IMG/VR virus record: IMGVR_UViG_3300035655_000051
Location: 98,232 to 150,250 of that record
Reading direction: 5' to 3' (one strand)
DNA: 52,019 bases
Source of the DNA: a virus
Taxonomy: Duplodnaviria; Heunggongvirae; Uroviricota; Caudoviricetes
This document shows, one piece after another, positions 6,200-28,133 of this stretch. The number at the start of each line of letters is the position of its first letter. The first letter of the stretch is position 1. A program made the position numbers and the translations under genes. The notes under the pieces were generated by a model that did not search any database, had not been told where the DNA came from, and worked only from the letters and a program-made list of their open reading frames with translations.

Positions 6200-6733
6200 A
6201 TGGCAAGACGTGCAACTACAAAAGCTGCGGCTCCCAAGGCAACTACTGCAAAAACCCCAGTTGAGCAGCCAGTTGTTTCTACCGCAGAGATTACAAATGA
6301 AACTATGGTTGAGTGCCGAAGTGGTGTCTCTGGCAACCTGATCTATAAGTCCTCACTGAACCCCGGCTATGTGGTCGAGTGGAGCGGTCTGGGTGAGATT
6401 CAGGAGATGGAGTATCGCGAGCTCGTTTCTATGCGTGGCAATCAGCGCAGTTTCTTTGAAGAGAATTGGATTCTGATTGATGACCCAGCAGTTATCAAGA
6501 AGCTGGGTGTCGGTCGTTACTATCAGAACAGTCTGTCTACTGATGACTTCGAGGATGTATTTAATATGTCCGCCGACGAAATCAAGGAGATCGTGCCCAC
6601 TTTGCCGGGCGGCACTAAGGACGCCATCGCATCTGAGGCTAAGAAGAAGATTGATTCTGGTGAGCTTGACAGTCGCAGTGCTATCAAGGCGCTTGAGGAC
6701 TCTCTGGATGTTGAGCTGGAAGATACCATCTAA
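6200..6733 (+). CDS. Hypothetical head-completion-region protein
   Basis: 177 aa, GGAGG RBS, basic Ala/Thr-rich N-terminus; assignment by position only. Confidence 0.6.
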   Translation: MARRATTKAAAPKATTAKTPVEQPVVSTAEITNETMVECRSGVSGNLIYKSSLNPGYVVEWSGLGEIQEMEYRELVSMRGNQRSFFEENWILIDDPAVIKKLGVGRYYQNSLSTDDFEDVFNMSADEIKEIVPTLPGGTKDAIASEAKKKIDSGELDSRSAIKALEDSLDVELEDTI

Positions 6734-6749
6734 ATAAAGGAGGCGGGCT

Positions 6750-7184
6750 ATGGCAACCACTTTTGAAAGTATCTATGCCCGCTGTCGTGGGCGAATCAAA
6801 GATTATGACAAAGAAGGCTACACAGACGAAATGTTTGCTGCCGTCGAAAAAGACCTGCTTCAGGCAGCGATTGACGATTTTGCAGACATCTGTGTTAATG
6901 ACCTGACCGATTACGACGAGGAGCTCGAGATGTTCAACGTTACGCTGTCTCGCAAGGAGCAGAGTATTCTCGCCCTGAGTATGATTGTTCACTGGTTAGA
7001 GCCTTACGTCTTTAATTCTGACGCACTAAAAAATGCCATGAGTACAAAAGATTTCTCTATGTTCTCTCCCGCTAAACTATTGGAGCAGATGAAAGACTTG
7101 TTACAGTATTCAGAACGGAAATTGAAAGCCGAAATGAATGGCTACTCGTTTAGAGTAAACAAGGTTTCTGAGCTGACTGAGTAA
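6750..7184 (+). CDS. Head-tail adaptor
   Basis: 144 aa helical protein in the adaptor position; GGAGG RBS. Confidence 0.6.
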   Translation: MATTFESIYARCRGRIKDYDKEGYTDEMFAAVEKDLLQAAIDDFADICVNDLTDYDEELEMFNVTLSRKEQSILALSMIVHWLEPYVFNSDALKNAMSTKDFSMFSPAKLLEQMKDLLQYSERKLKAEMNGYSFRVNKVSELTE

Positions 7185-7195
7185 GGCGGTGGCTT

Positions 7196-8218
7196 ATGAC
7201 TCGATCAGAATATAGAAAAATGCTTAAACTTAATGGACCAACCCAGCGTGACAGAATAATTAACAAGTCAATTCACGACCAAAACAAGTTGGCTCCAGTC
7301 AGTCCTTCTTTTAAAGATGTGACGATTGATGATATCCCGCGTAAACTGAATATTATTTCTTCAACTGTTATGGATCAAAAGATTATCCATACTCTGCCGG
7401 GCGAAGACTTTTCTATCGGAAGCATCGTCTATTGGAGCAAGAGCCACTGGTTGATTACAGAAAGAGACCCGGAAGACGAGATTACAGTGCGCGGACGTAT
7501 TCAGATTTGTCGAAAAGAAATCAAATGGCAAGACGATAATTCTCACGAGATTCATTCTTTGTGGGCTACAGTTGAAAAACCATATTATTCAAATCTGGAA
7601 GAGAACAAGCAGATGAGTTATTCTACTCGCGAATTCCGTATCCAGATGCCTTTCGATGAATACTCTGCCAATCTTAATATTGGTAAGCGGCTAATGCTGG
7701 AAATTATTAACGATGTGCCTAAAACATATCGTATTACTTCGGTCGACCAGATGACAAGCCGTATTGACTACAATAACGAACAGGTCGGATTTCTCTCTTT
7801 TAACGTTGAACAGGATCTATATAATCCAGAGACTGACAATGCTGAGAAGATGATATGTGACTATGTTCCTATTGAAGATACAGAAGAAATTCCGCCAGAA
7901 GTCGTCTATCCACCGCAGGAGGATGAGCCAGAATATGTTCTCAGTATTGATTTTACTGGAGCTCCGACAGTTCAAGCCGGCGGTTTCGGTAAGCTGTTTA
8001 CAGCGAAAATCGATGGCGAAACGTGTGAGACGGCAAATTGGACTTTACAGGGTGATCATGTTCCTGATGAGATCCATTTTAAGAACGCGGAGGATTCTGT
8101 GTCTAGCGCAAAATGTAAAGTAGTTTGCGCTGATAATCCCAAGCTGATTGGAACCATTGTATCTTTGACAGTTCAGTCAGGTAAATTAACCGCCGATATT
8201 GATTTGGAGGTGATCTGA
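7196..8218 (+). CDS. Head closure / connector protein with C-terminal Ig-like domain
   Basis: 340 aa, beta-rich, Pro/Glu linker followed by an Ig-like segment; position. Confidence 0.5.
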   Translation: MTRSEYRKMLKLNGPTQRDRIINKSIHDQNKLAPVSPSFKDVTIDDIPRKLNIISSTVMDQKIIHTLPGEDFSIGSIVYWSKSHWLITERDPEDEITVRGRIQICRKEIKWQDDNSHEIHSLWATVEKPYYSNLEENKQMSYSTREFRIQMPFDEYSANLNIGKRLMLEIINDVPKTYRITSVDQMTSRIDYNNEQVGFLSFNVEQDLYNPETDNAEKMICDYVPIEDTEEIPPEVVYPPQEDEPEYVLSIDFTGAPTVQAGGFGKLFTAKIDGETCETANWTLQGDHVPDEIHFKNAEDSVSSAKCKVVCADNPKLIGTIVSLTVQSGKLTADIDLEVI

Positions 8219-12239: not shown

Positions 12240-15200
12240 ATGGCGCGTGAACCAGAACTAAGTATTAAAGTCAAAGTAGATCCACAAATCAAACCAACAG
12301 AATTAAAGACAAGCATTGAGCGAAAAGTAAAACAAAGCGGTGAAAAGCCACAGATTGATATTGACCCTAATGTTGATGGCATAAAAAAGAAGGTCGAAGA
12401 TAAATTAAAAAACATCAAGGCAACTGCAAGTATAACGCCTGTTGTCGATACTGAAAAACTAAAAACTGATATTCAACAGCAAATTAACGGTATTGGCGAT
12501 ATCCCGAAAGTTACGGTTGGTGTTAACGTTGATGATTTTAGTGATGAACTCAGTAAACGACTCAAAGAAGAATTAAAATCAGTCAATGACAAACTGTCTT
12601 ATTACTTAAAAAATCTCACAACAAATACAGCTGGTTTAAACAGTGTCGTAGAAGGGTTATTTCCAAGTCGTGGCATTTCAAATGCTGTTCAGTCCGAATT
12701 AAAATCAGTTCAGGCAGAATTAACCGCAGGACTAAAAGGCGTAAAGAGTAAAGTAAAACCATTCAAAGAAACAGATCTTTTTCAAATTGGAGATACAGAG
12801 AGCACGACAACAATCCGACGGGTTGAAAAATTGGTTAAAAACATTAGAGACCAATTTGCAAGTCTTGATAATTTTTATGATGCAGATGAAGAAAAGTTTC
12901 TTGATGGATTTAATAGTGAGTTTGAAAAATTTCAAAACAACGCATCCGAAACAGTAGAAAAATTATCTGCTCTAAAAAAGAATTTAAGTAAAGACAAATT
13001 CAGTGATCTTCTTGACAATGAGGATTTTGATGCCGAGTCAACAACAAAGGCCCTTACTCCTCTTATTTCTTTTTTAAAGAAACTCTCAACTGCATCGATA
13101 AAAACAGGAGAAGACTACGATAATTTATATGCACTGTTTAACAACAAAAATACAAACAAACTATTTGACGAGTCCAACGATCATTTAACTAGAATGAAAA
13201 CGCGAGTTGGTGACATCACGGCTGAGACAAAAACTGCTATAGAAGTCACAGGCGAACTCGCTAAAACACTTAATAAAGCTATTAAGGATGACAATTCCGG
13301 TTATCTAAGTGATGCAGAAATAAAGACGTATGGTGCTGCTTTTGATGAAGTTTTGAGCAATATTGCAACAAAACAGGAAGAGATCAATACCCAAAAGCAA
13401 AGAACAGTCGAATTAGAAAATGATCTGTTGACAAAAACAAGATCCAATCGAGAAGCTCTCAAACAAGAACTTGAAGAGTATAAAAATCTATTGAAATCCT
13501 TTGGTGTAAAGGGAGACGAAGATGAGGGTAATCCGAAAGGTAAACCAAAACCGAAAAGCAAAGAACCGGACAAAACTCCATCCCAGAAACCAGCAGAAGA
13601 GCCAAAGGCTGAAAATCAAGACGCTCTAAATAACGGAATCGCTAAAATTCAAGCAATCGTATTTGATATCAATCAAGAGGAACTTCAAAAGTCTATTGAT
13701 ACAATTTTTGCTAAAGTTTCTGCTCCTATCGGATTCAAACCTGCTAATGGCGCTATTGCGAACATAAAGCAGCAACTACAAGAAGCATTTAGTGATATTG
13801 AAATCAATACAACTAATGTGAATTTGCAAAATTCTAAAACCGAAAACACCTCTCCAAAATATCATATATTAAACAAGGACGAGTTGCATAAGTTAGATAT
13901 GGAATTAAGGATGGGTAGTAGTCTTACTTTTACAGATTATAAACAGGGTATAGATAGGTTTATAAGAGCAGATTTTGGAAAGAAGTCCGGATTCCCAGAA
14001 CTTGAGCCTCATGAAATATCAATAGAATTAGCCAAAGAGTTAGGCAACGCCATGAAAAGTTATGACAATGGTAGCCGCAATAATAGTGTTATTGATATCA
14101 TAAAAAAATATGGTGCTAAAACTGATAATGATGGCAACATAATAGATTTTGAAGAATTTGTAAAAGATGCTTCCTACAAATTCTTTGGACCTAAAAATCG
14201 AAATAAAATCACTTCTCAAAATGCAGCAAGACTTCAAGAGATGCTACAGTCTCAAGACAAAGAAATACAAGCATACGCTTCATTTATTGAAAAACTAAAT
14301 TCAAAACTTGTTGAAAGCAAACAGTTTGGACCTCGCGCATATTTTGACGATTCTGATTCGCAATTCTATTATAGTTTATCTCCTGATGAGCAAAATGCTT
14401 TCTCTAATTTTCAGACTAAATCATATTTGGATAAATTTGAGCGTAATTTACACGCCAATCTTGTCGAGCCGGTAGATATTTCAGGTTCAAGTGGATATTA
14501 TTTTAACGATATCAACACTATGGTTGCCGAAATCTACAACCTAGCACAACAGCGTCTTATTCAATCTGTCGGAGATTTGTCAGGACAGACCGAGGCAGTA
14601 AAAGATCAAACTTCTATCCCCGGTAAGGTCACTATCACAGATGCAGATGTTATCGTCGATGTCAAAAATCCAGTAACAATTCCCGGCACTGTCACGGTTG
14701 ATCCGACTTCTGTTCAACTAGGTAATTCTGATGACCTTCAGAAAAATGCCAATGCTCTATCGTCTGTAAAGCAAAGTCTAAATAAAATTTCTACAAGCGC
14801 TGAAGACTATGGCACAAAAATAGCAACTATTGGTCCATCTGTTCAGTATGTCGCACAGGAAGTCGATAATCTCAGCAAGTCTCTTGAGAATCAAATCACA
14901 GACTTGGATCTTATCGCTAAAAAGACAGATGCCTACGGAACCACGGCCAATTCTATCACTCTGAACACAAAAGATGTGGCTGCTCCGACTGCACCGGTTA
15001 ATATTCCCGGCAAGGTAACTCTTAAAGTAGAAGACGTGACACCTCCGAAGGGTTCTGTAAAGATTCCCGGCAAGGTCGAACTCGAGGTTTCTGATATCAC
15101 TCCACCGAAAACGGCAATCGAATTGGAAGGTAAAGTGTCTAACGTTACAGTTGACAATTCCGCCAAGGGCAAAAAGAAGAATGTCAAGGATGATGTTAAA

Positions 15201-18200
15201 AAGCCTGAAGTTATTGATTTGAAGGGAAGGGTCGAACTCAAGGACGAGGATATCAAGAGACCTAATCCTCTGAACCTCAATGGCGCAGTAAAAATCAAAG
15301 CGGCCGATGTTAAGATTGACGATGTTGAGATTTCGAAAAAGAAATTTGACATTAAGGGCAATTTGATTCTGAAGAATGCGGAGATTGTCAATGCAGTAAA
15401 AGAAGCGGCTGGTGAAGCAGCAAAAATCAAAAAGAAAAACAACCCTACCGAGAACAGTAGCAAAGGATCAGAAGAAAAAGCGTCTGATTTTGATCGCAAA
15501 GCGAAAGAAGCCCATCTTGGGTGGCTTATTTCCAATATTGGAGAAAATAGAACATATTTACAGAGCGCAATTTCAAATAAAGATTCAAACAAAAGATCTT
15601 GGTATGCAGGAAAAATTGCAGACTATGAAAAGGATTTTGAAGAAACAACAAGAGAACTCATCGAAAATCTCACAGAAGAAGAGCAGGATTGGATCAAATC
15701 TTTAAAAGGTATAAAAGATTTAGATCTCAATGATCCAAAACAGATCGATGAACTCATGGCAGATAAAACAATCTCGTGGCCATGGGAAGAAAGCGGCTCT
15801 TATTTAAACGGTACATTAAAAGCTGCCAATATGGCAGGATTTTATAATGTTTCTGAAACCGATAAAGCTAAAAAGAGAAATAGCTATGAAAAAGAATATA
15901 TTGAGTTAATAAAACAAAAACCGGCATTAATTAAAGCTGCTGCGGAAGCTAAAAAGCAATACGGCGAAGACAGTGGCGCCTATAAGGATGCTGTAAAGGC
16001 AAAAAAAGAAAATGAAGATGCTCTACGTGCTATTAAGGCTGATAGGCAAAAAGCCGGTGCCCCGAGAGGAATTGTTGGTGGTGGCTATTCAAACTCCCCT
16101 GCTGTCCAAAGCACATTGGCTGACATTCATAAACAAGTTCAAAAAAGGCGTTCAGAATTATTGTTACAAAAAGCAAAAGATTCTAAAAGCGCTGATAACA
16201 AACAGGTTCAGCAAGCCAAAAAAATTCTATCAGACGCATTTATTGAACAGGCAAGAGCTTATGCTAATGGACTAAAGGAATCTGCGAAGTACAATGATGA
16301 CGACGCCTCTGAATCCGCAAAAACTGCTCGTCAACAGATGCAAGATGCTTTTGATTCCGCTAATGATAAATTTTTAGATTTACTTGATGTCCTTTCTGGA
16401 GACGAAATTGATCAGCTTACATTAAGAACAAAGAAGGAACTTGATTCTGCAAATATAATTGTAGAGCGTCGAACTTCGAAGCGCATTGATAACAATAACA
16501 AACTTCAAGATAATCGCTACCAGAATCTTATTGATAATTTATCAAATAAGCAAAAAACTTATGGAACCGTAGAAGAGGGTAAAACAGCGACGGATATTCA
16601 AGTTGCGCTTCAAAAGCAGCAAGAACTTGTATCACAGATTGCCAAAGCAAAGGTTGGTACAGAAGAGTACAACAACGCAATTCAAGCCGCAGAAGAAAAC
16701 TGGAAATCTGTTGTGGCAATTATAGACACTGTAGAAAAGAAGCAAAAAGACCTTGCGAAAGCCGTCGATAGTATTGAAAAGAAATTCTATCAGCTTGCAG
16801 AAGAAGCCTCTGGCAGCTCTAATGAGAAATTAAAGAACTCTATCAATGGAGTCATCACAAAAGCGGCTACACTTAGTGCTCAAAACCCAAACACATATGA
16901 GAATTATGCAGTTGATTATAATGAGTTAAAGCGTGAATCTTACAAAGCCAACGCGCAATACACCATTTGGAAGAGCAATTATAAGAAACTTGAGCGCGAA
17001 GGCATCAAAATCGCCGAGGGTGTTGAAGTTGCTCGACAGATGCAGACCGATGGAAGTCTTCAGAATGTCAAATTTGATAGTATCGATAATCTTCTTAGGC
17101 AGTTAAATGAGCTTGAGCCTCAGACTGACGCTTATAAAGAAAAACTTGTAGAAGTCAAAAAGATTTGGGAAGAAATCGAAAGAAAAGTTAAAGCCGTCGA
17201 AGAGGCGGAAAACCAAGCCGCAAAACGAGAAAGTACAAAGGCGGCAAATTTAACCTCTGTTGGAAATGCCATATCTCAAAATAGGGCTACAATGAAGGAC
17301 GTCCAGAAGAATTATGGTACTGATTATTCTTTTTATGGTAAGCTGCAAGAAAAAGATTCAAAGCTCAAAACTTTACTTGACACAGTAAATGAATCTTCAG
17401 ATCCGGTATCCGCTGCCAAAGGATGGGCACAGAATAACCTTGGTATATCTCCAGATAAAATTAATTCTGTAACGGATGCAATAAATCAATTAAACATCGC
17501 ATATAGAGAGGCAACACAAGAAGCAAAAGATTTCAATAAAGAAGCTTCTCGTGAAAAATCTATAAATAAGGCATCAATGGAAGTCGCTAATTTGAAGGCA
17601 ACTATTCATGATTATATTGCCGAACATAAAAAGCTTGAAGGAACAGATGTTGGGAAGTCTCTCTACGAGTTGCTTGAAGCATTGAATCAAAGCGATGCAC
17701 CAGAGAAAATTGGCGAATTGAAAAAGAAATATGCAGAGCTTCGCGCCGAATCTAAAAAGTTGGGTCTTGAATCAAGAAATCTACTTGATGTGTTTGAAAA
17801 ACTGTTTGGTCAGCATTTGAGCACTATGATCACTATGGCAGCACTGCACAAGATGCAAGACGCGCTGCGGATCGTGTATCAGAATGTGGTCGAGATTGAT
17901 ACGGCAGTAACTGAGTTAAGAAAAGTCAGTGAATATACAGGAAAGTCCCTTGAAGAGTATATGGGACGTGCCGCAGAACAGGCTCAAAAGTTAGGCGTAT
18001 CTATAAGTGACTATGTTAATTCAACTGCAGATTGGAAGCGGCTTGGTTATTCTGATGAAGACGCCGAGAATTTAGCAACCTACTCTACCCTACTTCGTAA
18101 CGTTGGTGATAATATCGATGATGTTAACACCTCGTCTTCATATTTGATTTCTACTCTGCAAGGCTTTGGGCTGTTAGCCGATCAAGCAGAAGATGTCGTT

Positions 18201-18368
18201 AACAAAATTGACGCTGTGGCAAACACGCAGCCTGTTACTGCAAAAGACCTTGGCGAAATCTTGACTCGCAGTTCTGCTGCTATGTCGGCCGCTAATAATA
18301 CGCTGGAAGAAACTATTGCACTTGGTACTGCTGCAAACTCAGTTATCCAAGATGCAGATACGGTCGGT
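12240..18368 (+). CDS. Tail tape measure protein, exon 1 (2043 codons)
   Basis: Long coiled-coil ending in the TP901-type tape measure core (EIDTAVTELRKV...DADTVG). The unspliced ORF stops 7 codons into intron 1. Confidence 0.9.
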
Positions 18369-18639
18369 AAAGTATATGCCGACGCTGCCTAGTAATAGGT
18401 AGCTAGAAAAATTAGCTATATCGGTCAAAATCCAGAAGTGGACAAGACCGAGGTAAGTGAAAACACGCACCGTAGAGACTGTAATACCTTATATGGTAAC
18501 ATATAGGGTTTAGCTATCCCCTATTATTCTTTCTAGGGTGAAGATCCAGTCCGAACTCACGATATAACAAAATGAAACGTGAGAGGTAGCCAGAAATGAC
18601 TGCCCGCCATAGAAATATGGTTATAAAAGTAACAGCTTG
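18369..18639 (+). ncRNA. Group I intron 1 (271 nt, ORF-less) in the tape measure gene
   Basis: P1 GTCGGT/GCCGAC with a U-G pair at the 5' splice site. P7 GAGACTG (18475-18481) pairs with CAGTCC (18547-18552) after an AAGAT J8/7. P9-type hairpins, terminal G at 18639. Removal gives in-frame ...DADTVG|TTLKSLSMYLR.... Confidence 0.92.
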
Positions 18640-19203
18640 ACAACTTTAAAAAGTTTATCAATGTATCTCCGTGCAGCTAAAAGTGACGCAGAGAATGCAG
18701 GCATTGAAGTTGACGGTATGGCCAATTCTGTGTCTGAGCTCCGCAGTGAACTAAAATCTCTGACTGGCGTTGACATCATGCTAGATAGCAAAAATTTCAA
18801 GAGTACATATCAAATCATGAAAGAGCTGTCTCAAGTATGGAGTGGTCTGTCCGATGTAACGCAAGCAAATGTCACTGAAATGATTGGCGGAAAGAGAAAC
18901 GCAAATGCAGTTAGTGCTATTCTAAACAATTTTGATGTTGCTGAATCTGCTATGGAATCCGCTGCTAACAGCGACAACGTGGCATGGGAAGAGAATGAGA
19001 AGTGGCTCGACAGTATCCAAGGCCGCCTTGGGCAACTCGACGCAAGCTTCCAAGTCCTTTCTCAAGACGTTCTCTCTTCCGACCTCGTAAAGGGCGGCGT
19101 ATCTTTCCTCACATCGATTGTTAAACTTCTTGATAAAATCATTAATCTCACTGGTGCCCTTCCTGCTGGATTGGGCATCGCAGCATTTGCAACTCAGCTG
19201 GGT
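18640..19203 (+). CDS. Tail tape measure protein, exon 2 (188 codons)
   Basis: Continues the tape measure core (LTGVDIM..FKSTYQIMKELSQVW, IGGKRNANAVSAIL); bounded by two phase-0 splice sites. Confidence 0.9.
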
Positions 19204-19594
19204 GAACCCAAAATGACGGGTTTCATGATTGTGCCCAGCAATACTCCGGGTGGTGACACGGAACAAGTGCTCCGCAGGTATTTTATTATATCATTGCGAA
19301 GCATGAGGGAGTATTTAGTAAAACCGACGAACATGGTGGCCTAGCCACGGCGAGTTTGGGTAATTCTCGTCCGGGAACCGAAAGGAATCCGCAGGCAAGC
19401 TCTGCATGTGCCTACATTATTATAATAGGCACTGCCAGAGACGCTTCAGAGAGCATAATGTCGGAGTGGAGCTACGTGCGCAACAACGCCACAGATTCAC
19501 TATGGGGTGCTCCAAATCACTGCTACGCAATCAAGCGCACGCAGGAAAAATTACAGGCGGTCTTTCCCCTGCCGTCAAAAGTGGAGAATAAAAT

Positions 19595-19623
19595 TTGACA
19601 GAAGAATTATTATGTGATAGTAT
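19595..19623 (+). promoter_or_regulatory. Sigma70-type promoter for the first cargo operon
   Basis: TTGACA-17 nt-TAGTAT with an extended TG. Confidence 0.7.
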
Positions 19624-19635
19624 CAGGAGGAAAGT

Positions 19636-19869
19636 ATGGACGAAAAAATCAAAAAGATTTGTGAAGAATATGCATGGGCGTGGTATTTTGATCTTCCGCA
19701 TAGACTAGAGTGGCAGAATAAATATTTTCAAGCACGCAGAGGGCTTTCCGAAGAAGAAAAAATTTCTGTAACTGAATACTTTTGTAAATGCCAAAACAAG
19801 AATGAAAAACTTCTTCCACAAATTGATTATGTTGGTCCATTTGAATCCTATTTAATTAAAGAGGAATGA
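19636..19869 (+). CDS. Intron cargo: hypothetical protein, 77 aa
   Basis: AGGAGG RBS, own promoter, AT-rich. Confidence 0.7.
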   Translation: MDEKIKKICEEYAWAWYFDLPHRLEWQNKYFQARRGLSEEEKISVTEYFCKCQNKNEKLLPQIDYVGPFESYLIKEE

Positions 19870-19873
19870 GATA

Positions 19874-20359
19874 ATGTCTGAGCTGAAGACGTATACCTTT
19901 GTATATGATGAGATTGCAAAATTGATTATAATCCCAGTAATATTCAAAACTAATAATTGCATGATGAAGGTAAAAACGCTCATTGATACTGGCGCTGCTG
20001 CAAGTTATATTTCAAGTTTTGTTTCTACATCTTTAAATCTTCAACTTACAGGAAACGTATATCACGTTAAATTTGGAGAAGATGACGCAACTCGTCCTTC
20101 TGTTTATGCTAATTTGATATTGTCTTCTGATATTTGCTTTTCAAACAAAGAGTTAACCGTTCTCAAAGATGAACCTCGTGCTTATGATGCCATTATTGGC
20201 ATGGATATCTTGTCGAAAACGGATTATTCCGTAAGCAATTATAACGGTCATACCACGTTCAGCCTTCGTATACCATCACAAGCAGAGATAAAATACGGAG
20301 AAACAGAAGACATCGATTTACTAATGGACAAAATTGAAGATGCTCTTCTTTCGACATAA
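19874..20359 (+). CDS. Intron cargo: retropepsin-like aspartyl protease
   Basis: LIDTGA catalytic motif and downstream AIIGMDIL motif of clan AA single-domain aspartic proteases. Confidence 0.85.
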   Translation: MSELKTYTFVYDEIAKLIIIPVIFKTNNCMMKVKTLIDTGAAASYISSFVSTSLNLQLTGNVYHVKFGEDDATRPSVYANLILSSDICFSNKELTVLKDEPRAYDAIIGMDILSKTDYSVSNYNGHTTFSLRIPSQAEIKYGETEDIDLLMDKIEDALLST

Positions 20360-20365
20360 TCTATA

Positions 20366-20394
20366 TTGACACGGCATGCGCCGCAAGCTATAAT
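20366..20394 (+). promoter_or_regulatory. Perfect consensus sigma70 promoter
   Basis: TTGACA-17 nt-TATAAT upstream of the 110-aa gene. Confidence 0.85.
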
Positions 20395-20450
20395 AAAAAT
20401 ATCAAAAAAACAATGCGCAAACAAAACGCATGTAGTGGAGGTATTTTATT

Positions 20451-20783
20451 ATGGCACGTCCTAAAGGAAGCAAGAATAAAGCAAATACAGCTGCAGTTGT
20501 TGATTACGAAGCTATGATTGCAGAGAAAAACGCTGCTATTGAAGCAACCAACAGTGAGATCGCATCTATCACTGCAAATATTGATACGCTGAAGGGCGAT
20601 CTGAAAACACGCAAAGTAGAACTTAAAAAACTGAACAAAGATATTGCAAAATTGGAGTCCAAGAAATCTGCCGCCGATCAGAAGGCCGCTGAAGCTGCTG
20701 CTGAAAAAGAAGCCATTGATCTTGTGAAGAAGGCATTGGCAGGTGGCACCACTGTTGATGAAATCATTGAACTGCTGAAATAA
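20451..20783 (+). CDS. Intron cargo: small coiled-coil protein with AT-hook-like N-terminus
   Basis: MARPKGSKNK followed by a Lys/Ala/Glu-rich coiled coil; GGAGG RBS; own promoter and terminator. Confidence 0.8.
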   Translation: MARPKGSKNKANTAAVVDYEAMIAEKNAAIEATNSEIASITANIDTLKGDLKTRKVELKKLNKDIAKLESKKSAADQKAAEAAAEKEAIDLVKKALAGGTTVDEIIELLK

Positions 20784-20817
20784 CGGCTGCACCGCAAGGT
20801 GTTGTCGTAATGAACAA

Positions 20818-20857
20818 GCCCGACTTCCCTACTGCTGGGAGGTCGGGCGTTTTATTT
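20818..20857 (+). terminator. Strong intrinsic terminator between the convergent cargo units
   Basis: GCCCGACTTCCC-tactgct-GGGAGGTCGGGC followed by GTTTTATTT. Confidence 0.8.
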
Positions 20858-20941
20858 ATGCCATTTTAGTCAGTTACAACTTACCACTCATACATATAGT
20901 TCTTGTGGTAGAATTATTTACTGGGTTTGCTGGCGGTACAA

Positions 20942-21277
20942 TCACTTTTGTACTTTTGCTTTCCGCTCTGCTTCTAGCTTTACAAAGTCAAGCCCATATA
21001 AATCTTCAAGCTCTTCAAGGACGTGCTTGATTCCATATCCAATATGCATCTCGTTTGCGCCAAATTTATAATAGATATCGCCAAGCGCTTCAGGTTCAAG
21101 TCCAAGATCGTCAATTCGACCTCTGAATTTCCCATGGCCGTCAACGGTTACAGGATACCGAAAATCAGCGCCCCACTCATCAGTCCATCCGTTGTACGAG
21201 TCGCTATTTGCACATGTGTCGCCAATTCTGTATTCAAGTTTGCAAATGAGGTTCATAATGTCCTGATTGACTTTCAT
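20942..21277 (-). CDS. Intron cargo (antisense): hypothetical protein, 111 aa
   Basis: AAGGAG RBS on the minus strand, 12 nt downstream of the 215-aa gene. Confidence 0.75.
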   Translation of the reverse strand: MKVNQDIMNLICKLEYRIGDTCANSDSYNGWTDEWGADFRYPVTVDGHGKFRGRIDDLGLEPEALGDIYYKFGANEMHIGYGIKHVLEELEDLYGLDFVKLEAERKAKVQK

Positions 21278-21289
21278 TTTAATTCTCCT

Positions 21290-21937
21290 TTAAAAATTAC
21301 TCCCGCAGTTTTTGCAATGCCACTGTTTGCCGATCTTCCCGCTGGCAGCCCCCACGAGAGACACAGATACGGCGCGGCTCACAGTGCTAATCTTCTCGGT
21401 GTTCGTGGATTTGCAATAGGGACAGATGACACGCTTACCGCTGTCAAGGTCTTGCTGAGTCTTTATATGTTCATGCATTTCCTGCATCATTTTAGCGTCT
21501 TTGAGTGCCTGTTGTTTACGTTCTGCTTCTTTTCTCTCTCGTTCGATGCAACCCGGGTCGGCTTGTTCGCGGAGATAATCATGATACCATTGCACAAAAA
21601 GAGAATTTGCTCGTCTGTGTGGTTCTCCACTTTTACCTTCATATAGATGACTTTCTTTTACGAACAAAATCGCTTCCTTCATACACTCATCATACTTGAT
21701 TTTGAGATTTTTGTTTTCTATTAAAATTTGATCAGCCAAATAAGCATACACAATAGATATGTAAAAGTCATTATCATCTTCTAATGTTGGATCGTGCTTT
21801 AAATATTTATAATTGGGATATCGTTTTAATAAGCGCTTTCCCTCTTTTATCATAGCTCCTTTTGTGTAATTACTAAACATATTTTGAGCAACAGCACACT
21901 TAACATCGATATCTCGTTCTATTATGCCAAGCTTCAT
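21290..21937 (-). CDS. Intron cargo (antisense): protein with C-terminal zinc ribbon
   Basis: CPYCKS...WHCKNCG flanking a small Gly/Ala/Ser-rich hydrophobic segment; GAGGTG RBS. Confidence 0.8.
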   Translation of the reverse strand: MKLGIIERDIDVKCAVAQNMFSNYTKGAMIKEGKRLLKRYPNYKYLKHDPTLEDDNDFYISIVYAYLADQILIENKNLKIKYDECMKEAILFVKESHLYEGKSGEPHRRANSLFVQWYHDYLREQADPGCIERERKEAERKQQALKDAKMMQEMHEHIKTQQDLDSGKRVICPYCKSTNTEKISTVSRAVSVSLVGAASGKIGKQWHCKNCGSNF

Positions 21938-21982
21938 TTAATACACCTCATTGACAAATAATCTTAACCGACCATTAAGATT

Positions 21983-22011
21983 ATTATACGCTTTGACAAT
22001 CAATAAGTCAA
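21983..22011 (-). promoter_or_regulatory. Minus-strand sigma70 promoter straddling the 3' splice site
   Basis: Minus strand reads TTGACT-17 nt-TATAAT; the -35 lies in exon 3 and the -10 in the intron. Confidence 0.8.
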
Positions 22012-25000
22012 TGATTGAGCTCGGTAAAGGATTTGATGGAACTATTGAAAAGGCAATTTCTTCTACTGAAAAACTTAATGGTATTCCAAAAATCCTTCAG
22101 AAATTTATGATGTTTGGAAACAAAAAGGCTGGATTGTTAACAGAAATCGATGCGACTTCTTTTGAAGGTAATATGCTTGGGAAAGACATCCAAAATTATG
22201 TGGCTCAAATCGCCAATCTTGATAAAAATCAACGAAAAGCAATTGAAAGCACAACTAAATTTGGTGATGGTGTAAAAAGTGCGGCAGACGCTCTTCTTAA
22301 CGCGGTAGATGCTGGTGAAAAAATCAATTCCAAACTTTTCGAGTCCACTTTAAAATCGTGGTCTCATGGCGACATTTTAGCGGGCGATATTAACTCACTA
22401 ATGGCTGTCGGTAACATGAAGAATGGCGACAAGTATGCTCTCCCGGACACAAAACAAGCAATAAAAAACATTAACGATTGGGCGAATGCTGTAGAAAACG
22501 CCGAAGCAAAACAACGACTGCTTAATTCTGGTATTCTTGAAACAGATGGCTCAACTGTAAAACTTAGTAGCGGTTTCTTAAAGTTAATCCAAGTTGAAAA
22601 GACTGATGCTGCCGTTACTGCTGGTCTGACGGCAGAAAAAGAAATTCTCAATATTGTCATGCAAGCAGGCAAGCAACTTCTTGTAAGTATTGCAATTGGT
22701 GCATTTATTAAAGGTCTTGAAGTCGTATACAAAAAAATGACTCAGATTGACGATAAAATTGCCGAAGTCGCGAATGATTCCAAACAGCAGGCTGATAACT
22801 TGTCTTCTACCAGCAAATCTCTTAAAGATTTGGTTTCTCAATATGAAAAAATGGGAGACAAAACTTATAGAACAGCAGAAGAATCGGAAAAATTGGCAGC
22901 GCTTCAAGAGCAGATTACGACGTTGCTAAAAGATCAACCCGGTGTTAGCGAAGAAATGCTCAAGCAAGTTAATCTTCAGAACGCAAGCTATGACACTCAG
23001 CTTCAATTGTTAAAAGATATTGAAGAACAACAGCGTAAAAACGCACATAGAGATCTTGTAGATAATGTTGAAGACCAAGGGGATTTGCTGGTTGAAGCTT
23101 ATAAGAAAAAAGCTCAGAGATTCAAAGTCGGTGCAAATGCTGGCGAAAGAAATATTGTCAAAGAACTTATAAGAGACGGTTTTGGAAATTTTGAAGATGA
23201 TACAGGAGATTTTAATTTTAATATAGATCCAGAAGACCCTGATGCAATTCTTAATCTATATAATTCTCTTGGCGAAGAGGTTGATAAATTAACCGAAACA
23301 TATTCTGACGATGAGCTTGAAGGATTAAAAAATGTTAGAAAAGAACTCAAGCAATATATCGAAGATTATAAAAATGGTAAAGAACAACTCCACGACAATG
23401 AACTTCCAGATGTCACTAATGACGCGCTTAAAAAGCTACAGAATCAAAAAGAGCTTGCTGACAGTTTTACTCCTTCTAAACCTGCCGAAGAAGTAAATTT
23501 TGATGATAGCATAAAGAAAACAAAAGAATATCAAGCTGTATTAAAAAATCTTCAAGACACAAAAGAAAAATTTGAAGAAAAGGGCTTTGGTCAATACGGT
23601 AACATCAATAATCTAAATCGTGATATGATTTATTGGACGGACGAGAACAAAAAGAAATATCACGATTTTGCAGAGGAGAATCCAGACGATGTGGCTGGTG
23701 AGTATTCTACTGTTTTAGGCACTTATGACAATATTTATAATGGCGACAAGTCAATGCCCCTTATGACGTACACCCCTATGCTTCAAACTGATGATGGTCT
23801 TGTTCCTCTAACTAAAGAGCAGGTGCAGCGTTACATTGAGACGATTGCAGAATCTTCTTGGACTGAAGATAATACCTTAGACCTTGATAAGTTATTGAAG
23901 CTTGACGCTGAAGGACTTGAACAGGATATCAATGGTGAGATAGTTCGTGTAAAAGGTCTAATTGGTGGAATTGAAGGAACAAAAGGACCAGATGGGAACA
24001 TTCTAACAAAAGCAGACATTATGGCCATGTCAGGCAATAATAATCAGGAAATCATTTCTGATATGCAAAGAATGTATAACCTTAATCGTGCTGATTTGCC
24101 AAATGCGTCAGAAACTTTGAGTCGATATGTCGGTAATTCAATGCACGATATTCAAGGCGCTGTATCAGAAGCGGAAAAAGATGTCGATCGCGTTTACAAA
24201 TTGTTAGATACCAGCGCAAAGAAATCTTATGAAAATACGGCAAAATATTGCGATGAAGCAGCACAGAAACAATTTTCAGATTATACCGAAATCAAAAATG
24301 CTGTTGACACTTTAAAAGCTGGTGTATCTGGATTTGATACAACGAATCTTACGTCTTTGCTGAATAGCGATGGTGAAAACCTTGGCCGGATCGATACTGA
24401 AGCGCTTGAAAAGCTAAAGCAAATCATGACAGACTTCGGGTTTGATCCAACTGTTGCAGCCGACGTTCAAGCGTTTGTTGACACATTAAAGCAGCTTGAA
24501 ATTGTTTCCCCATCCGTAATTGAGAAGAATCAACAAATAGCACAATCTGTTACTGATGCAGCTACCCAAATGAGTAATGCTTCTCAGGGCATTGATGATA
24601 TGCAAAAAGCGTATCAAGCATGTAAATCTGCAGTCGATGAATACAATAAAACAAAATATGTAAGCGCCGACACTCTACAAACTCTTATGAATCTTAATCC
24701 GCAGTATCTTTCTATGCTACAAGATGAAGACGGACAATTGTCTATCAACACTTTAACAGCGAAAAAGCTTACAGCTGCTACGATTCAGACTCAGCGGGCT
24801 GCTTTGTTGGCAAACGCCGTCACTCAAATTCAACAAACCAATACGCTTGCTGCGGCGCAAAAAGTTCTTGGTGAAGCACAAGCTACCATTGGCAACGCAA
24901 CACAGATCCTTACTAGCGCATTGTATCAGTCGGCAGAAGAAGGTCTTGCAAATAATGGCAGTTTTGAGGAAATGCAAGCTGTTCTGTCAGCTGGTCATCA

Positions 25001-28000
25001 AATTATAAGCAATTATAAAATGATGGATAAGCTCTGGGCAGAACTGGCAAAACAGGACCCTGATAAAATTTGGGGTAAAAATAGCACATCTAAATCAAGC
25101 AAAACCGCAAAAGCAAGTAAAACAGCTCTTGATGCGTGGTCTAGTTTGTCATCTGCAATGAAAGAGTTTAATCAGCAGGGGTATATTACACTCCAAACAT
25201 TAAAGAGCCTTTCTGATCTCGAAGATCGATATGTTGCATTGTTGACTAAAAACGACGTTACAGGGCAATTGGAAATTCAAACAGACGCATTCTACAATCT
25301 TACCAAAGCTGAACTTAAAGCTGCACAAGCTAAAGGTGACGGCGTAAGTGAATCAGAATACAATAAGATTCTTGAATGGACAAATCGCAATATCAAAAAA
25401 CAAACTATGTCTTACTGGGATCTTGTTGCGGCGATTGAAGGATATTCTGCTGCGTTGAGCGGAGCCAAGGATATTACTGATACGTTCAAAGATGCATGGA
25501 GTAACGGCAAGACTGTCAAAGAAAAACAAGAAAAGAGTCGCGCCGGCGCACTTGATTATGAAGGTACTGAAGCACAATCCTCTGCTCTGCAAGACCTGAT
25601 GAAGTACAGTGAATATGACCCTGAATTGATTAGCAAGGCTTTCAATAAGGAAACTGGCAAAATTGATCTGAGTGGAGACGTGCTGAAAACCGCCGTTGCA
25701 AAATCTCTCGAGCAGTATGCCGCCGCAGCTCGCACTGAAGGCGGAGAAGCCGCTGAAGCTATTGCTGCAAGCTATGAAAAGTCTGCTGAGAATATTAAGA
25801 ACGATGTCATTTCTGTGCAGGACTTTTTTGATGGTCTTGGTTCTACGATTGAAGAAGTCAGTTCAAAGATTGATGAAGTGCAGAGTGCGTTTACAGATAT
25901 CGACGATATAAAGGATGAATATGATATATATGGCGGCCTGAGCGTAGACTCTTTGCAGAAGTTGCTCACTATGTCCCCTGACTATATTGCTTGTCTCGAG
26001 ATGGAAGGAGACCAACTCATTTTCAATCGCGACAAGATGGTCGAGCTCTTAATCGCACAGCTTGAGTCAAAGAAAGAATTCTTGCTGTCTAAAGAAGAAA
26101 CTAAGGATCAGGCCGAAATAATCCAGAAAATCATTGACGCTCTCCGAAAAGATGGTGTTAACGCTCTCGCTGGAATGAATTATCAGGCTGAAAAATTCAA
26201 ATCTGCTCTATCCGATGCAAAAGACATCCTTTCTTCTTTCCTCTCTCTCCTTTCGTCCGCAAATGACAAATCCAACAACGACCTCAAGATTTGGGGCGAC
26301 ACGATGAATAAAGTCATCGACAAGCGGATTGAGGCTCTGAATAAGCAGAAGGAAGCTTTGGAAGAAAACAACGAAGCCACCGAGCGTGCTATTGAACTTT
26401 CCAAGGCACAGGATGCTCTTGCCCGCGCCCAGCAACAGCGCACGACCCGTGTGTACACTGAGAATGGCTACGAGTGGCAGGCAAACGCCGAAGATGTGCG
26501 TACTGCACGTGAAGACCTTGCTGACAAGCAGCGCGAGTGGAATAACAAGGATGCCGAAAAGGCTATTGATGACCAAATCAAGAAGTACAATGAGTTCAAG
26601 GACAAGTTGTCTGAAGTCATGGATGATATCGGCAAGAGCTGGAAGGATTACCAGAAGGAACTTGAGTACACTGCGCAGATCCAGAAGATGACTCTATCTC
26701 AGATGGAAGGCTCACTGGACGGCTATCACAATAAGATCATCGCAAGCCTGAATACCGGCAGCGCGATCACCGGCATCCAAAATCTGATTACAAGCCTTGA
26801 ATCACTGATCAATACGCTTACGAAGGTAAATAACCTGTATTCCATGCTTAAAACTGGTGAGTACAAAGATCTCGGTATAAAAGGTCTGTGGAATACGATA
26901 AAAGGATTCTTTAATAAGGGTGGCGAAGAAGCAACTGGTGAGTCCGCTAATGTAGTTGAGAATTTCTTCAACGTCTTAAGGAGTAAAGTTCAGACTTCTG
27001 GGAACGGACTTGTTGAAACATTTAGCGGTATCTGGGAGAGGATCAAAGGTGGCGCTCGGAGCCTATTTAACGGTTCCGGCGAAGGCGGCGGCATCATTTC
27101 TACTGTTGTAAATGGATTCAAAGCAATCGGTAATGCTGTTAGTAAGAGCAAGATTGGTTCCACTCTTATTAAAGGCGCAGGAAAACTAGTCACTGGTGCT
27201 GGCGGACTTATCAAAGGCGCTGTTAGTGCTATAGGTGCTGCTGGCGCTTCTGCAATCCCTGTTGTTGGTGGTCTTGCTGCAGCGGCTGGTCTTGGTATTT
27301 ATAGCGGTGTAAAGGGTATAAAGCATCAAAAGGAGATCTGGTCCAACAAAGAAGACGGTTTTGGCAAAAAGGCTATAAAGTCTGTTGCGTCGTTCTTCTG
27401 GGACATCAGTCCGATTGGTGGAATCGTAAATCTATGTAAAGACATTTTCGGTAAGAGTAAAGAAACTGCCGAGAATACAAAAGATACTGCGAATAGTAGT
27501 TCTGAAACTGCCGAAAACACACAAAAGAGCGCAACAAATCTCACAATTAACGCTACACAGATCGTATCTAAAGAAGAGAATAAAGCAACTGACGAAACAG
27601 ACAAAAAGAATGACGCAATCGCCAATGAAGATAAAACAGTCAAAACGGCTGCTACAACTCTTACTGGTGCTGGTCTGGGCGCAGCTGCGGGTATGGCAAT
27701 AGGTGGACCTGTAGGAGCATTGATTGGTACTCTTTTAGGAGGTTTTGCTGGTTTCTTTTTGGGTGGTCACGCGAATGGTCTTAAATCTTCTAAAACGAAT
27801 CATTTTGCAAACGTTGACGAAAGAGGTTCAGAACTTATTGTTCGTAAGCCAGCTTCTGGACGTTATACATATCTTGAGACTGGCGATGGTGTTGTTCCTG
27901 CTGATATTACCTCTCGCCTGTTTGAGATGGGCGGCAATCCAGACAAGTGGTTCAGCGATCAATTGGCAAAACATAGTTCTGCTTCTATGGTACAAAGCCG

Positions 28001-28133
28001 TGACGCTGGTGGTATTTCCCTGTCTATTGGTGATGTGAATGTAAACAATCCCGTTGGTGATAGCGATGCACTGGCTCGTGAGTTGGTAAATCGTCTGCCG
28101 AACAAGGTTGTACAGGAACTGAATAGACGTTAA
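21996..28133 (+). CDS. Tail tape measure protein, exon 3 (2045 codons plus stop)
   Basis: Coiled coil, Gly/Ala-rich hydrophobic segments, C-terminal HANG...VDERGSELIV...GDGVVPA motif typical of tape measure ends. No convincing RBS at the ORF-track start 21951. Confidence 0.88.
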   Translation, partial: TINKSMIELGKGFDGTIEKAISSTEKLNGIPKILQKFMMFGNKKAGLLTEIDATSFEGNMLGKDIQNYVAQIANLDKNQRKAIESTTKFGDGVKSAADALLNAVDAGEKINSKLFESTLKSWSHGDILAGDINSLMAVGNMKNGDKYALPDTKQAIKNINDWANAVENAEAKQRLLNSGILETDGSTVKLSSGFLKLIQVEKTDAAVTAGLTAEKEILNIVMQAGKQLLVSIAIGAFIKGLEVVYKKMTQIDDKIAEVANDSKQQADNLSSTSKSLKDLVSQYEKMGDKTYRTAEESEKLAALQEQITTLLKDQPGVSEEMLKQVNLQNASYDTQLQLLKDIEEQQRKNAHRDLVDNVEDQGDLLVEAYKKKAQRFKVGANAGERNIVKELIRDGFGNFEDDTGDFNFNIDPEDPDAILNLYNSLGEEVDKLTETYSDDELEGLKNVRKELKQYIEDYKNGKEQLHDNELPDVTNDALKKLQNQKELADSFTPSKPAEEVNFDDSIKKTKEYQAVLKNLQDTKEKFEEKGFGQYGNINNLNRDMIYWTDENKKKYHDFAEENPDDVAGEYSTVLGTYDNIYNGDKSMPLMTYTPMLQTDDGLVPLTKEQVQRYIETIAESSWTEDNTLDLDKLLKLDAEGLEQDINGEIVRVKGLIGGIEGTKGPDGNILTKADIMAMSGNNNQEIISDMQRMYNLNRADLPNASETLSRYVGNSMHDIQGAVSEAEKDVDRVYKLLDTSAKKSYENTAKYCDEAAQKQFSDYTEIKNAVDTLKAGVSGFDTTNLTSLLNSDGENLGRIDTEALEKLKQIMTDFGFDPTVAADVQAFVDTLKQLEIVSPSVIEKNQQIAQSVTDAATQMSNASQGIDDMQKAYQACKSAVDEYNKTKYVSADTLQTLMNLNPQYLSMLQDEDGQLSINTLTAKKLTAATIQTQRAALLANAVTQIQQTNTLAAAQKVLGEAQATIGNATQILTSALYQSAEEGLANNGSFEEMQAVLSAGHQIISNYKMMDKLWAELAKQDPDKIWGKNSTSKSSKTAKASKTALDAWSSLSSAMKEFNQQGYITLQTLKSLSDLEDRYVALLTKNDVTGQLEIQTDAFYNLTKAELKAAQAKGDGVSESEYNKILEWTNRNIKKQTMSYWDLVAAIEGYSAALSGAKDITDTFKDAWSNGKTVKEKQEKSRAGALDYEGTEAQSSALQDLMKYSEYDPELISKAFNKETGKIDLSGDVLKTAVAKSLEQYAAAARTEGGEAAEAIAASYEKSAENIKNDVISVQDFFDGLGSTIEEVSSKIDEVQSAFTDIDDIKDEYDIYGGLSVDSLQKLLTMSPDYIACLEMEGDQLIFNRDKMVELLIAQLESKKEFLLSKEETKDQAEIIQKIIDALRKDGVNALAGMNYQAEKFKSALSDAKDILSSFLSLLSSANDKSNNDLKIWGDTMNKVIDKRIEALNKQKEALEENNEATERAIELSKAQDALARAQQQRTTRVYTENGYEWQANAEDVRTAREDLADKQREWNNKDAEKAIDDQIKKYNEFKDKLSEVMDDIGKSWKDYQKELEYTAQIQKMTLSQMEGSLDGYHNKIIASLNTGSAITGIQNLITSLESLINTLTKVNNLYSMLKTGEYKDLGIKGLWNTIKGFFNKGGEEATGESANVVENFFNVLRSKVQTSGNGLVETFSGIWERIKGGARSLFNGSGEGGGIISTVVNGFKAIGNAVSKSKIGSTLIKGAGKLVTGAGGLIKGAVSAIGAAGASAIPVVGGLAAAAGLGIYSGVKGIKHQKEIWSNKEDGFGKKAIKSVASFFWDISPIGGIVNLCKDIFGKSKETAENTKDTANSSSETAENTQKSATNLTINATQIVSKEENKATDETDKKNDAIANEDKTVKTAATTLTGAGLGAAAGMAIGGPVGALIGTLLGGFAGFFLGGHANGLKSSKTNHFANVDERGSELIVRKPASGRYTYLETGDGVVPADITSRLFEMGGNPDKWFSDQLAKHSSASMVQSRDAGGISLSIGDVNVNNPVGDSDALARELVNRLPNKVVQELNRR

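Follow-up and report, generated by a model that had tools for sequence, protein, structure and literature searches.

The tape measure (TMP) gene in the 52,019-nucleotide stretch of gut-phage DNA analyzed here (the window) is broken by an insert of 2792 nt, designated as intron B, which co-varies as a group I intron and carries five genes with promoter-like sites. On the evidence of sequence comparison, intron B likely self-splices from the late transcript, joining position 19203 to position 21996, and would thus provide a tolerated site for swappable cargo within an essential gene. The phage genome encodes two tyrosine integrases, which suggest that the phage is temperate, and no sigma70-family gene was found in it.

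Position of intron B and the reading frame

Both boundaries of intron B and the frame across them were established (Table 1). As had been predicted, joining exon 2 to exon 3 keeps the frame, and the three exons together comprise 4276 codons. In the isolate phage PMBT24, TMP is a single uninterrupted frame, and parts resembling exons 1, 2, and 3 occur in the same order in the unbroken TMPs of PMBT24 and CB473P3. Exon 3, which contains a hypervariable stretch at approximately 22300–25000, had no significant match in the TMP of Sundance, and a search of GTDB with exon 2 found no relative. No intron-less close allele that would fix the boundary of intron B directly was found.

Table 1. Features of the TMP gene, intron B, and its cargo in the window
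Feature	Position	Strand	Evidence or remark
TMP exon 1	12240..18368	+	PF10145, E 2.7e-14; PHROG tape measure families
Intron A	18369..18639	+	Separate ORF-less group I intron, 271 nt, same gene
TMP exon 2	18640..19203	+	phrog_4211, E 5.5e-31; final 7 bases pair with the intron guide as P1
Intron B, whole cargo-carrying group I intron	19204..21995	+	Homologs, covariation, 3′ site
P1 extension hairpin and internal guide	19204..19239	+	P10 strand 19226–19232, P1 strand 19233–19239; compensatory changes in P1 and P10
Ribozyme core	19241..19513	+	Helix table, pair counts
P2	19241–19314	+	Helix table
P3	19324–29/19459–64	+	Helix table
P4 and P5	P4 interpreted as split by two-hairpin insert (19336–19371)	+	Helix table
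P6	19394–95/19444–45	+	Helix table
P7 with bulged A	19449–19455/19508–19513	+	Helix table
P8	19465–70/19496–501	+	Helix table
P9.0 5′ strand, variable P9 hairpin, stem-loop with predicted pseudoknot	19514–18; then P9 hairpin; 19556–19587	+	
Sigma70-type promoter for c1–c2	19595..19623	+	10/12 with TG
c1, 77 aa, no family	19636..19869	+	No matches
c2, 161 aa, retropepsin-type aspartyl protease	19874..20359	+	PF13975, E 3.2e-6
Consensus sigma70 promoter for c3	20366..20394	+	12/12
c3, 110 aa coiled-coil protein, basic N-terminus	20451..20783	+	Generic coiled-coil matches only
Strong intrinsic terminator between c3 and c4	20818..20848	+ (TMP strand)	12-bp stem, U tract, −24.8 kcal/mol
c4, 111 aa antisense gene, no family	20942..21277	−	Model pLDDT 88
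c5, 215 aa antisense, C-terminal zinc ribbon	21290..21937	−	phrog_24502
3′-terminal hairpin, conserved 7-nt loop	21957..21985	+	z −4.27; 8/10 pairs compensatory in 15 sequences
Antisense promoter for c5–c4	21983..22011	−	−35 in exon 3, −10 in intron; 11/12
P9.0 3′ strand and terminal G	21990..21995	+	G in 46/46 relatives (resolved relatives only, exon 3 start set by protein homology)
TMP exon 3	21996..28133	+	First 7 bases form P10; homologous to C-terminal part of unbroken PMBT24 TMP

Given that the lengths of 100 homologous introns are spread over all three frames (43, 31, and 26), translation by read-through cannot work. Another explanation, which we regard as very unlikely, is that exons 1–2 and exon 3 encode separate proteins with an ordinary accessory island between them, the conserved RNA being regulatory or dead. 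Among the 100 introns, 66 are followed by a Met five codons into exon 3, which would suit such a split gene, but the remaining 34 lack it, and exon 3 has no ribosome-binding (Shine–Dalgarno-preceded) start within its first 100 codons in 93 of the 100 homologs, which argues against the independent N-terminus that was named as a refutation of splicing. Likewise, no relative has a split gene without the ribozyme core: an intron core is present in all 83 loci covering the site.

Fold and covariation of the ribozyme core

Intron B has a defined fold, and its sequence supports the group I architecture read in the original prediction, with P1 and its U-G, P2, P3, and the bulged-A P7 all at the expected places in a co-varying core. 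The helices are named after that architecture, and the RNA element reaches approximately 19590 on the 5′ side, beyond the core described originally. P1 (19197–19203/19233–19239) has seven of seven pairs with U-G as the final pair; it is fully paired in nine of nine homologs, with compensatory changes in three pairs and an invariant U-G. Across nine aligned homologs, 97.3% of cells are paired and 22 of 59 pairs show compensatory changes, compared with 88.4% pairing in shuffles (0/500 reach 97.3%) and 38–49% when the structure is slid along the sequences. Covariation is found in P1, P2, P3, P6, and P8, including four of six pairs in both P3 and P8, and P7 is invariant. Mean conservation of the non-coding core is 93% versus 79–92% for coding exon 2 (40 loci). 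In the putative P4–P5–P6 scaffold, P6 co-varies, and the 3′ strand and the A-A junctions look canonical; the atypical parts are J8/7 and the 5′ strand of P4, a helix without variation whose 6 bp require the two-hairpin insert in that strand.

Of the covariance-model searches proposed earlier, the one with Rfam RF00028 gave no match to the core of intron B. The absent match would favor separate proteins, but P7 is invariant across phages that share only ~30% exon identity, which argues against that reading and for an intron. Because RF00028 also misses intron A, for which intron-less alleles define the ends, the miss weakens the assignment to a subgroup more than membership in the class. The L249 intron, which is Rfam-positive at 62.7 bits, has the same P7 variant as intron B and is matched by model R1 (E 7e-9), a match that is partly circular because L249 had been found by P7 motifs. 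The motif scans gave many chance matches, L299 among them, and most non-family loci lacked a core.

The 3′ splice site

The guide was predicted to pair with both the end of exon 2 and the sequence at 21996, and it does so: besides the complete P1, the segment 19226–19232 is fully complementary to 21996–22002, directly after the G at 21995. The guide and the start of exon 3 change together, giving at least four guide types, and this P10 co-variation spans clades with only ~30% identity between their exon 2 proteins. P10 alone fails to pick the 3′ site, as the 7-nt match is not unique and one site within the cargo scores higher. The anticipated P9.0 is also present, with four of five pairs between the five bases after P7 and 21990–21994; at least three of five pairs form in 82/99 introns, P9.0 is weak (one or none of five) in 14/99, and both of its sides are changed in the homolog L432. 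When ranked by P10 and P9.0 together, the in-frame site comes first among a median of 576 G positions in 75/99 introns and is not top in 24/99. A loop-loop contact is predicted to link the 3′-terminal hairpin to the end of the 5′ RNA block, where a segment complementary to the hairpin loop lies within 19514..19587 (+); it comprises 5–7 bp in distant clades and only ~3 bp in the window.

The antisense promoter for c5–c4 straddles the 3′ splice site, and a site scoring at least 10/12 occurs at the same offset in 83/100 introns. Part of the conservation at the 3′ end of the intron is due to the overlapping promoter, as the split-gene explanation would have it. However, the terminal G and the P10 bases lie in the spacer of this promoter, yet they either do not vary or change along with a guide that is kilobases away, as expected of a spliced intron rather than of two separate genes.

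In the splicing mechanism that we propose, a free guanosine bound at P7 would attack the terminal U-G of P1, and P10 and P9.0, together with the terminal G, would bring in the distant 3′ end. The loop-loop contact probably helps, and the cargo would thus be looped out. Neither a spliced RNA nor a junction peptide was observed; the joined 19203/21996 sequence did not occur in contigs from four runs and three RNA runs yielded nothing, blanks that carry no information about splicing.

Cargo genes, signals, and the internal terminator

The cargo lies in the P9 region and comprises, in agreement with the original prediction, three sense and two antisense ORFs, each with a Shine–Dalgarno-like upstream sequence. 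The three sigma70 promoters (two sense and one antisense) and the terminator read originally were also recovered, the promoters scoring 10, 12, and 11 of 12; all promoter-like sites in the region number 10, which is not above shuffles (7.7 ± 2.8). Among the homologous introns, c1 occurs in 19/100, with c2 beside it in 19/19, whereas c2 occurs in 50/100, c3 in 92/100, c4 in 61/100, and c5 in 100/100. A weak match of c2 in PADLOC (PDC-M08B, E 4.5e-4) is the sole match of the window cargo to a known defence system, and c3 has 1083 homologs. The c4 model had no match in BFVD at E 0.001, a comparison of the c5 fold with PDB gave nothing past generic zinc ribbons, and an ESM Atlas search of the cargo folds returned unnamed clusters only. 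We propose that the cargo would be expressed by the host polymerase from the internal promoters, probably in the lysogen.

The sense terminator at 20818–20848 is a problem for the intron reading that had not been raised before. At least one internal sense terminator is present in 69/100 homologs (0/40 in exon controls), and it must be read through if the intron is cis-spliced; late transcription would pass it by read-through or antitermination. Alternatively, the terminator could end a first transcript carrying the 5′ ribozyme block, with a short 3′ block on a separate transcript, the two blocks assembling in trans by way of P9.0, P10, and the loop-loop contact. Reports of group I introns spliced in trans exist for organelles (PMC3873408 and PMC2731911), and the 3′ block here is modular, with its own co-varying hairpin. 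We nevertheless consider a discontinuous intron unlikely: the second sense transcript needs a promoter past the terminator, but sigma70 sites of at least 10/12 occur in the last 800 nt in only 10/100 introns (control 1/96), the window has only 9-of-12 sites there, and a terminator is missing from the four shortest homologs with one cargo gene.

Homologous introns and variation of the cargo

The 100 distinct homologous introns are 1.2–5.2 kb long and hold 1–11 ORFs on both strands, counts that take in some shadow ORFs and a few pieces of exon 3. Their cargo varies: all have the antisense zinc-ribbon gene, some have PemK/MazF or Panacea genes, and PBECR4, DUF3800, and PD-T4-10-like genes also occur. 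Aligning relatives thus revealed different cargo at the same site, as had been anticipated, but not the intron-less alleles, none of the 83 loci that cover the site having one (236 of the 316 relatives from one search are outside this count).

As originally noted, homing endonuclease and IS-type motifs are missing: no HNH, GIY-YIG, LAGLIDADG, or similar nuclease was found among the five window proteins or 37 cargo proteins of relatives, no transposase family scored above the cut-off in the window or the relatives' cargo, and intron B is present as a single copy in the genome. It is highly improbable that intron B is a selfish mobile intron with an unrecognised homing nuclease or maturase and hitchhiking other genes. 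The sole candidate would be c5, which is present in every intron and has a zinc ribbon with four cysteines invariant in 38 aligned proteins, but neither a nuclease family nor a nuclease fold matched. Moreover, c5 lies on the antisense strand, carries a different N-terminal part in different clades, and is similar at its C-terminus to a gene that stands alone near the start of Streptococcus phage genomes (E 4e-4). Intron B is also fixed in 83/83 covering loci, unlike the patchy intron A. We favor a spliced cargo intron that would be fixed rather than homing, whose cargo would turn over by recombination between related phages, anchored in the conserved core and the resident genes.

Comparison with known systems and implications

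Temperate-phage morons and accessory hotspots have their own promoter and terminator and carry variable toxin–antitoxin and defence-like genes. Unlike morons, which lie between genes, the cargo of intron B sits within a coding sequence and would rely on splicing. Our literature search for a multi-gene phage cargo intron found no paper, and the available text of PMC9610469, PMC11318856, and PMC11835236 contains nothing on intron B. The earlier remark that no multi-gene, bidirectional cargo intron of this kind was known agrees with this search for phages, but multi-gene group I introns do occur in hexacoral mitochondria (available part of PMC6545197). There, the obligatory group I intron ND5-717, with demonstrated splicing, similarly has a peripheral loop that houses several (2 to 16) unrelated genes, but these are core mitochondrial genes on one strand in P8, and giant forms back-splice (PMC6545197, same part). 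The cargo of intron B, by contrast, consists of variable accessory genes on both strands in the P9 region of a phage intron.

In Bacillus cereus-group prophages, the tape measure gene likewise has several group I introns (TMP-IVS1, IVS2, and IVS3), with different introns at one site; according to the accessible part of PMC2504315, they hold nothing or one HNH or GIY-YIG gene, whereas the introns described here hold 1–11 ORFs on both strands, lack any endonuclease family, and have an atypical core. IStrons, which combine a group I intron with an IS605/IS607 element, share with intron B a long coding insert ahead of the 3′ splice site, presumed silence at the RNA level, and a doubly used 3′ end (PMC10690162, in part). 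Unlike IStrons, intron B lacks TnpA/TnpB, is fixed at a single site instead of transposing, and has its cargo replaced between phages. Bastillevirinae introns also interrupt essential phage genes with the ORF looped out of the ribozyme; in the available portion of that survey, most contain no more than one CDS, the CDSs nearly all encode nucleases, and multi-CDS cases are two introns or a frameshifted nuclease (PMC11878797).

If intron B splices, phage group I introns would be not just selfish endonuclease carriers but possibly also permanent accessory-gene hotspots in virion genes, and a phage could keep swappable accessory genes within an essential gene. For the large gut phages of this common family, the annotation would be corrected, TMP being one protein of ~4276 residues. 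Such sites escape Rfam and searches confined to intergenic space and would be a new source from which defence and toxin–antitoxin genes could be mined, and a compact bacterial ribozyme tolerating 1–5 kb of two-way cargo with internal terminators would be relevant to RNA structure and engineering. More tentatively, a domesticated ribozyme may serve as a universal splice adapter for the family: a fixed core, whose conservation exceeds that of the surrounding protein, would clamp to a remote 3′ hairpin, allowing the toxin–antitoxin/defence cargo block and the next 1000 TMP residues to be exchanged as one module. The terminator and the antisense promoter over the 3′ splice site might also keep tail mRNA from being made in the lysogen, more than one kind of group I core may have taken this role at the same site, and the present core may represent an unlisted structural subgroup.

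Intron A and a second core type

Among 52 relatives, intron A is precisely absent from 46, occurs as a 1.3-kb ORF-bearing form in four, and is not covered in two. A second group I core, canonical in appearance, lies at the matching site in 28 phages that are more distantly related, and the seven listed of those 28 have multi-gene cargo.

Organization of the TMP gene

The 150-kb virus record that holds the window encodes two tyrosine integrases, and the tape measure protein (TMP) of the window is similar to TMPs of Enterocloster and SPbeta-like phages. Its coding region is in three pieces, which when joined give a single frame of 4276 codons; element B, the cargo-carrying intron, lies between exons 2 and 3. 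In the isolate phages PMBT24 and CB473P3, each TMP is encoded by one ORF in which parts similar to exons 1, 2 and 3 follow one another, and no group I core was found in it.

Features in the window and in loci of relatives (L-numbers)
Feature	Location	Strand	Remark
TMP exon 1	window 12240-18368	+
Intron A	window 18369-18639		ORF-less form
TMP exon 2	window 18640-19203	+
Element B	window 19204-21995
TMP exon 3	window 21996-28133	+
Divergent exon 3 segment	window 22300-25000	+	~1000 codons
3' hairpin	window 21957-21985
7-base direct repeat	window 21951-21957 / 21993-21999
P6 region insert	L263 ~6700-6990		~280 nt, one distant homolog
Long intron A	L003 6685-8000		1.3 kb
Exon 2 insertion	L049 ~6420-8000		~1.6 kb, one relative
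Skipping-rope RNA (RF02924)	L298 4532-4614	-	TMP strand
Skipping-rope RNA (RF02924)	L277 6539-6617	-	TMP strand

Ribozyme core of element B

Judged by comparative sequence analysis, element B is a genuine group I intron whose core is atypical. All features named in the original prediction are present in the window sequence. Rfam searches gave no group I match to element B, either at the gathering score or with E values up to 10, and none genome-wide; this blank is weak evidence because intron A was missed likewise. The gain in folding stability of the 5' block over its shuffles is modest (z -2.45), and the case for element B thus rests on comparison with relatives.

Motif scans detected distant homologs in the matching position of the TMP gene, and exon 2 of the phages that carry them is ~30% identical. 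We aligned nine cores (five close-family and four distant), with helices named after the general group I architecture. Pairing was found in 97.3% of 528 cells and both-sided changes in 22 of 59 pairs; no shuffle out of 500 matched this, and slid controls reached 38-49%, a comparison biased in favor of the structure, for which the window sequence had served as template. This bias does not touch the compensatory changes in P1, P3, P6 and P8. P7 is invariant among the nine cores, and the same variant occurs in an Rfam-positive intron (L249, 62.7 bits). P4 is unusual in that its 5' strand appears to be split by two hairpins, which may have caused the Rfam failure.

No close intron-less allele was found among 83 loci spanning the element B site. 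The window-type core is present in 55 (51 from the IMG/VR relative set and four from a second set, 80 of 316 relatives), and 28 have a different, canonical-looking core. In 20 of these 28, a G and 5-8 P10 pairs occur at the head of a long ORF, as they do in 3/3 more when the frame may contain a TAG. At the matching TMP site of L253/L266, L295, L298 and L383, a third type of core shares the P7 variant of the window-type core; the several-kb cargo of L266 includes a LytTR response regulator.

The distant 3' end and likely splicing

A G directly precedes exon 3 in all 46 relatives whose exon 3 start is fixed by protein homology (51 examined, five too short). The guide and the first exon 3 bases co-change, giving at least four guide types, and P9.0 is altered on both sides in one homolog. 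Of 99 introns, 75 had the in-frame site, picked among in-frame G positions near the long ORF head, in first place among a median of 576 G positions when P10 and P9.0 were scored together; in 24 it was not first. The 3' hairpin (z -4.27) shows compensatory changes in 8/10 pairs (15 sequences). Its loop matches the end segment of the 5' block by 4-7 complementary bases in distant clades, where both co-change, a contact that may form a clamp across the cargo; the window allows just ~3 such pairs. In 83/100 introns, an antisense promoter spans the 3' splice site with an identical offset; it accounts for some of the 3' end conservation, but the terminal G and P10 bases fall within its spacer. Owing to the direct repeat, another in-frame G site exists 42 bases ahead of the 3' splice site; it is probably unused because stops lie between both sites in many relatives.

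Element B contains a strong sense terminator, and at least one occurs in 69/100 homologs versus 0/40 exon 3 controls. Cis splicing would therefore need read-through or antitermination. Trans-splicing would be the alternative, but no conserved sense promoter downstream of it was found in the 100 introns. These distinct introns (window included) are 1171-5224 nt long, with lengths in all three frames. In 93/100 introns, the first 100 codons of exon 3 contain no start with a Shine-Dalgarno sequence before it, which favors one joined protein, as in the original prediction; a Met lies five codons into exon 3 in 66/100. The sequences indicate that element B is likely spliced.

Cargo genes

The antisense ORF c5, with a C-terminal zinc ribbon, is present in all 100 introns, the sense ORF c3 in 92, the antisense ORF c4 in 61, the sense ORF c2 (a retropepsin-type protease) in 50, and the sense ORF c1 in 19, each time with c2. 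Different cargo at the same site, as had been anticipated, is thereby borne out, and element B appears as a cargo site fixed in place and variable in content. c5 is weakly similar to a gene that Streptococcus phages have close to the start of their genome; structure models of c4 and c5 were confident, with no clear structural match. No homing endonuclease family was found among 37 cargo proteins from relatives; their matches include PemK/MazF (present in 12 introns), PBECR4, DUF3800 and a pair of Panacea and PemK genes. A PD-T4-10-like pair occurs among 26 cargo proteins of relatives. Rfam skipping-rope RNA is part of the cargo in two distant introns; the adjoining ORFs, without a Pfam match, may be type III toxin-antitoxin toxins.

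TMP genes with group I introns have been described, the introns carrying at most one endonuclease gene each (PMC2504315). Two phage surveys describe introns with one CDS or none (PMC11878797) and short introns (PMC12880540), and other reports describe IStrons with transposon genes as cargo (PMC10690162) and the spliced coral mitochondrial ND5-717 intron with 2-16 genes inside (PMC6545197). Literature searches, covering mostly non-subscription papers, yielded no report of a multi-gene accessory intron in phages.

Across 40 full-length loci, mean identity is 93% at the core start and 79-92% in exon 2, whereas most cargo segments are 12-64% identical and the divergent exon 3 segment aligns at the DNA level in 1/40 close relatives. 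This contrast suggests that the intron sits at the border of a region swapped as a module.

Other inserts in the TMP gene

Intron A is patchy: among 52 IMG/VR relatives it is precisely absent from 46 and has a longer, ORF-bearing form in four, the site being uncovered in two. The 359-codon ORF of the long form, with treble-clef/zinc-finger repeats, probably encodes a homing nuclease of a type unnamed by Pfam. In TMP exon 3 of L304, L305 and L308, the frame is broken by in-frame TAG codons, and read-through lengthens it from 1206-1713 to ~1900 codons; stop-codon recoding is possible in these three loci, not in the window. Inserts also occur in TMP exon 1 of L248, L277 and L298.
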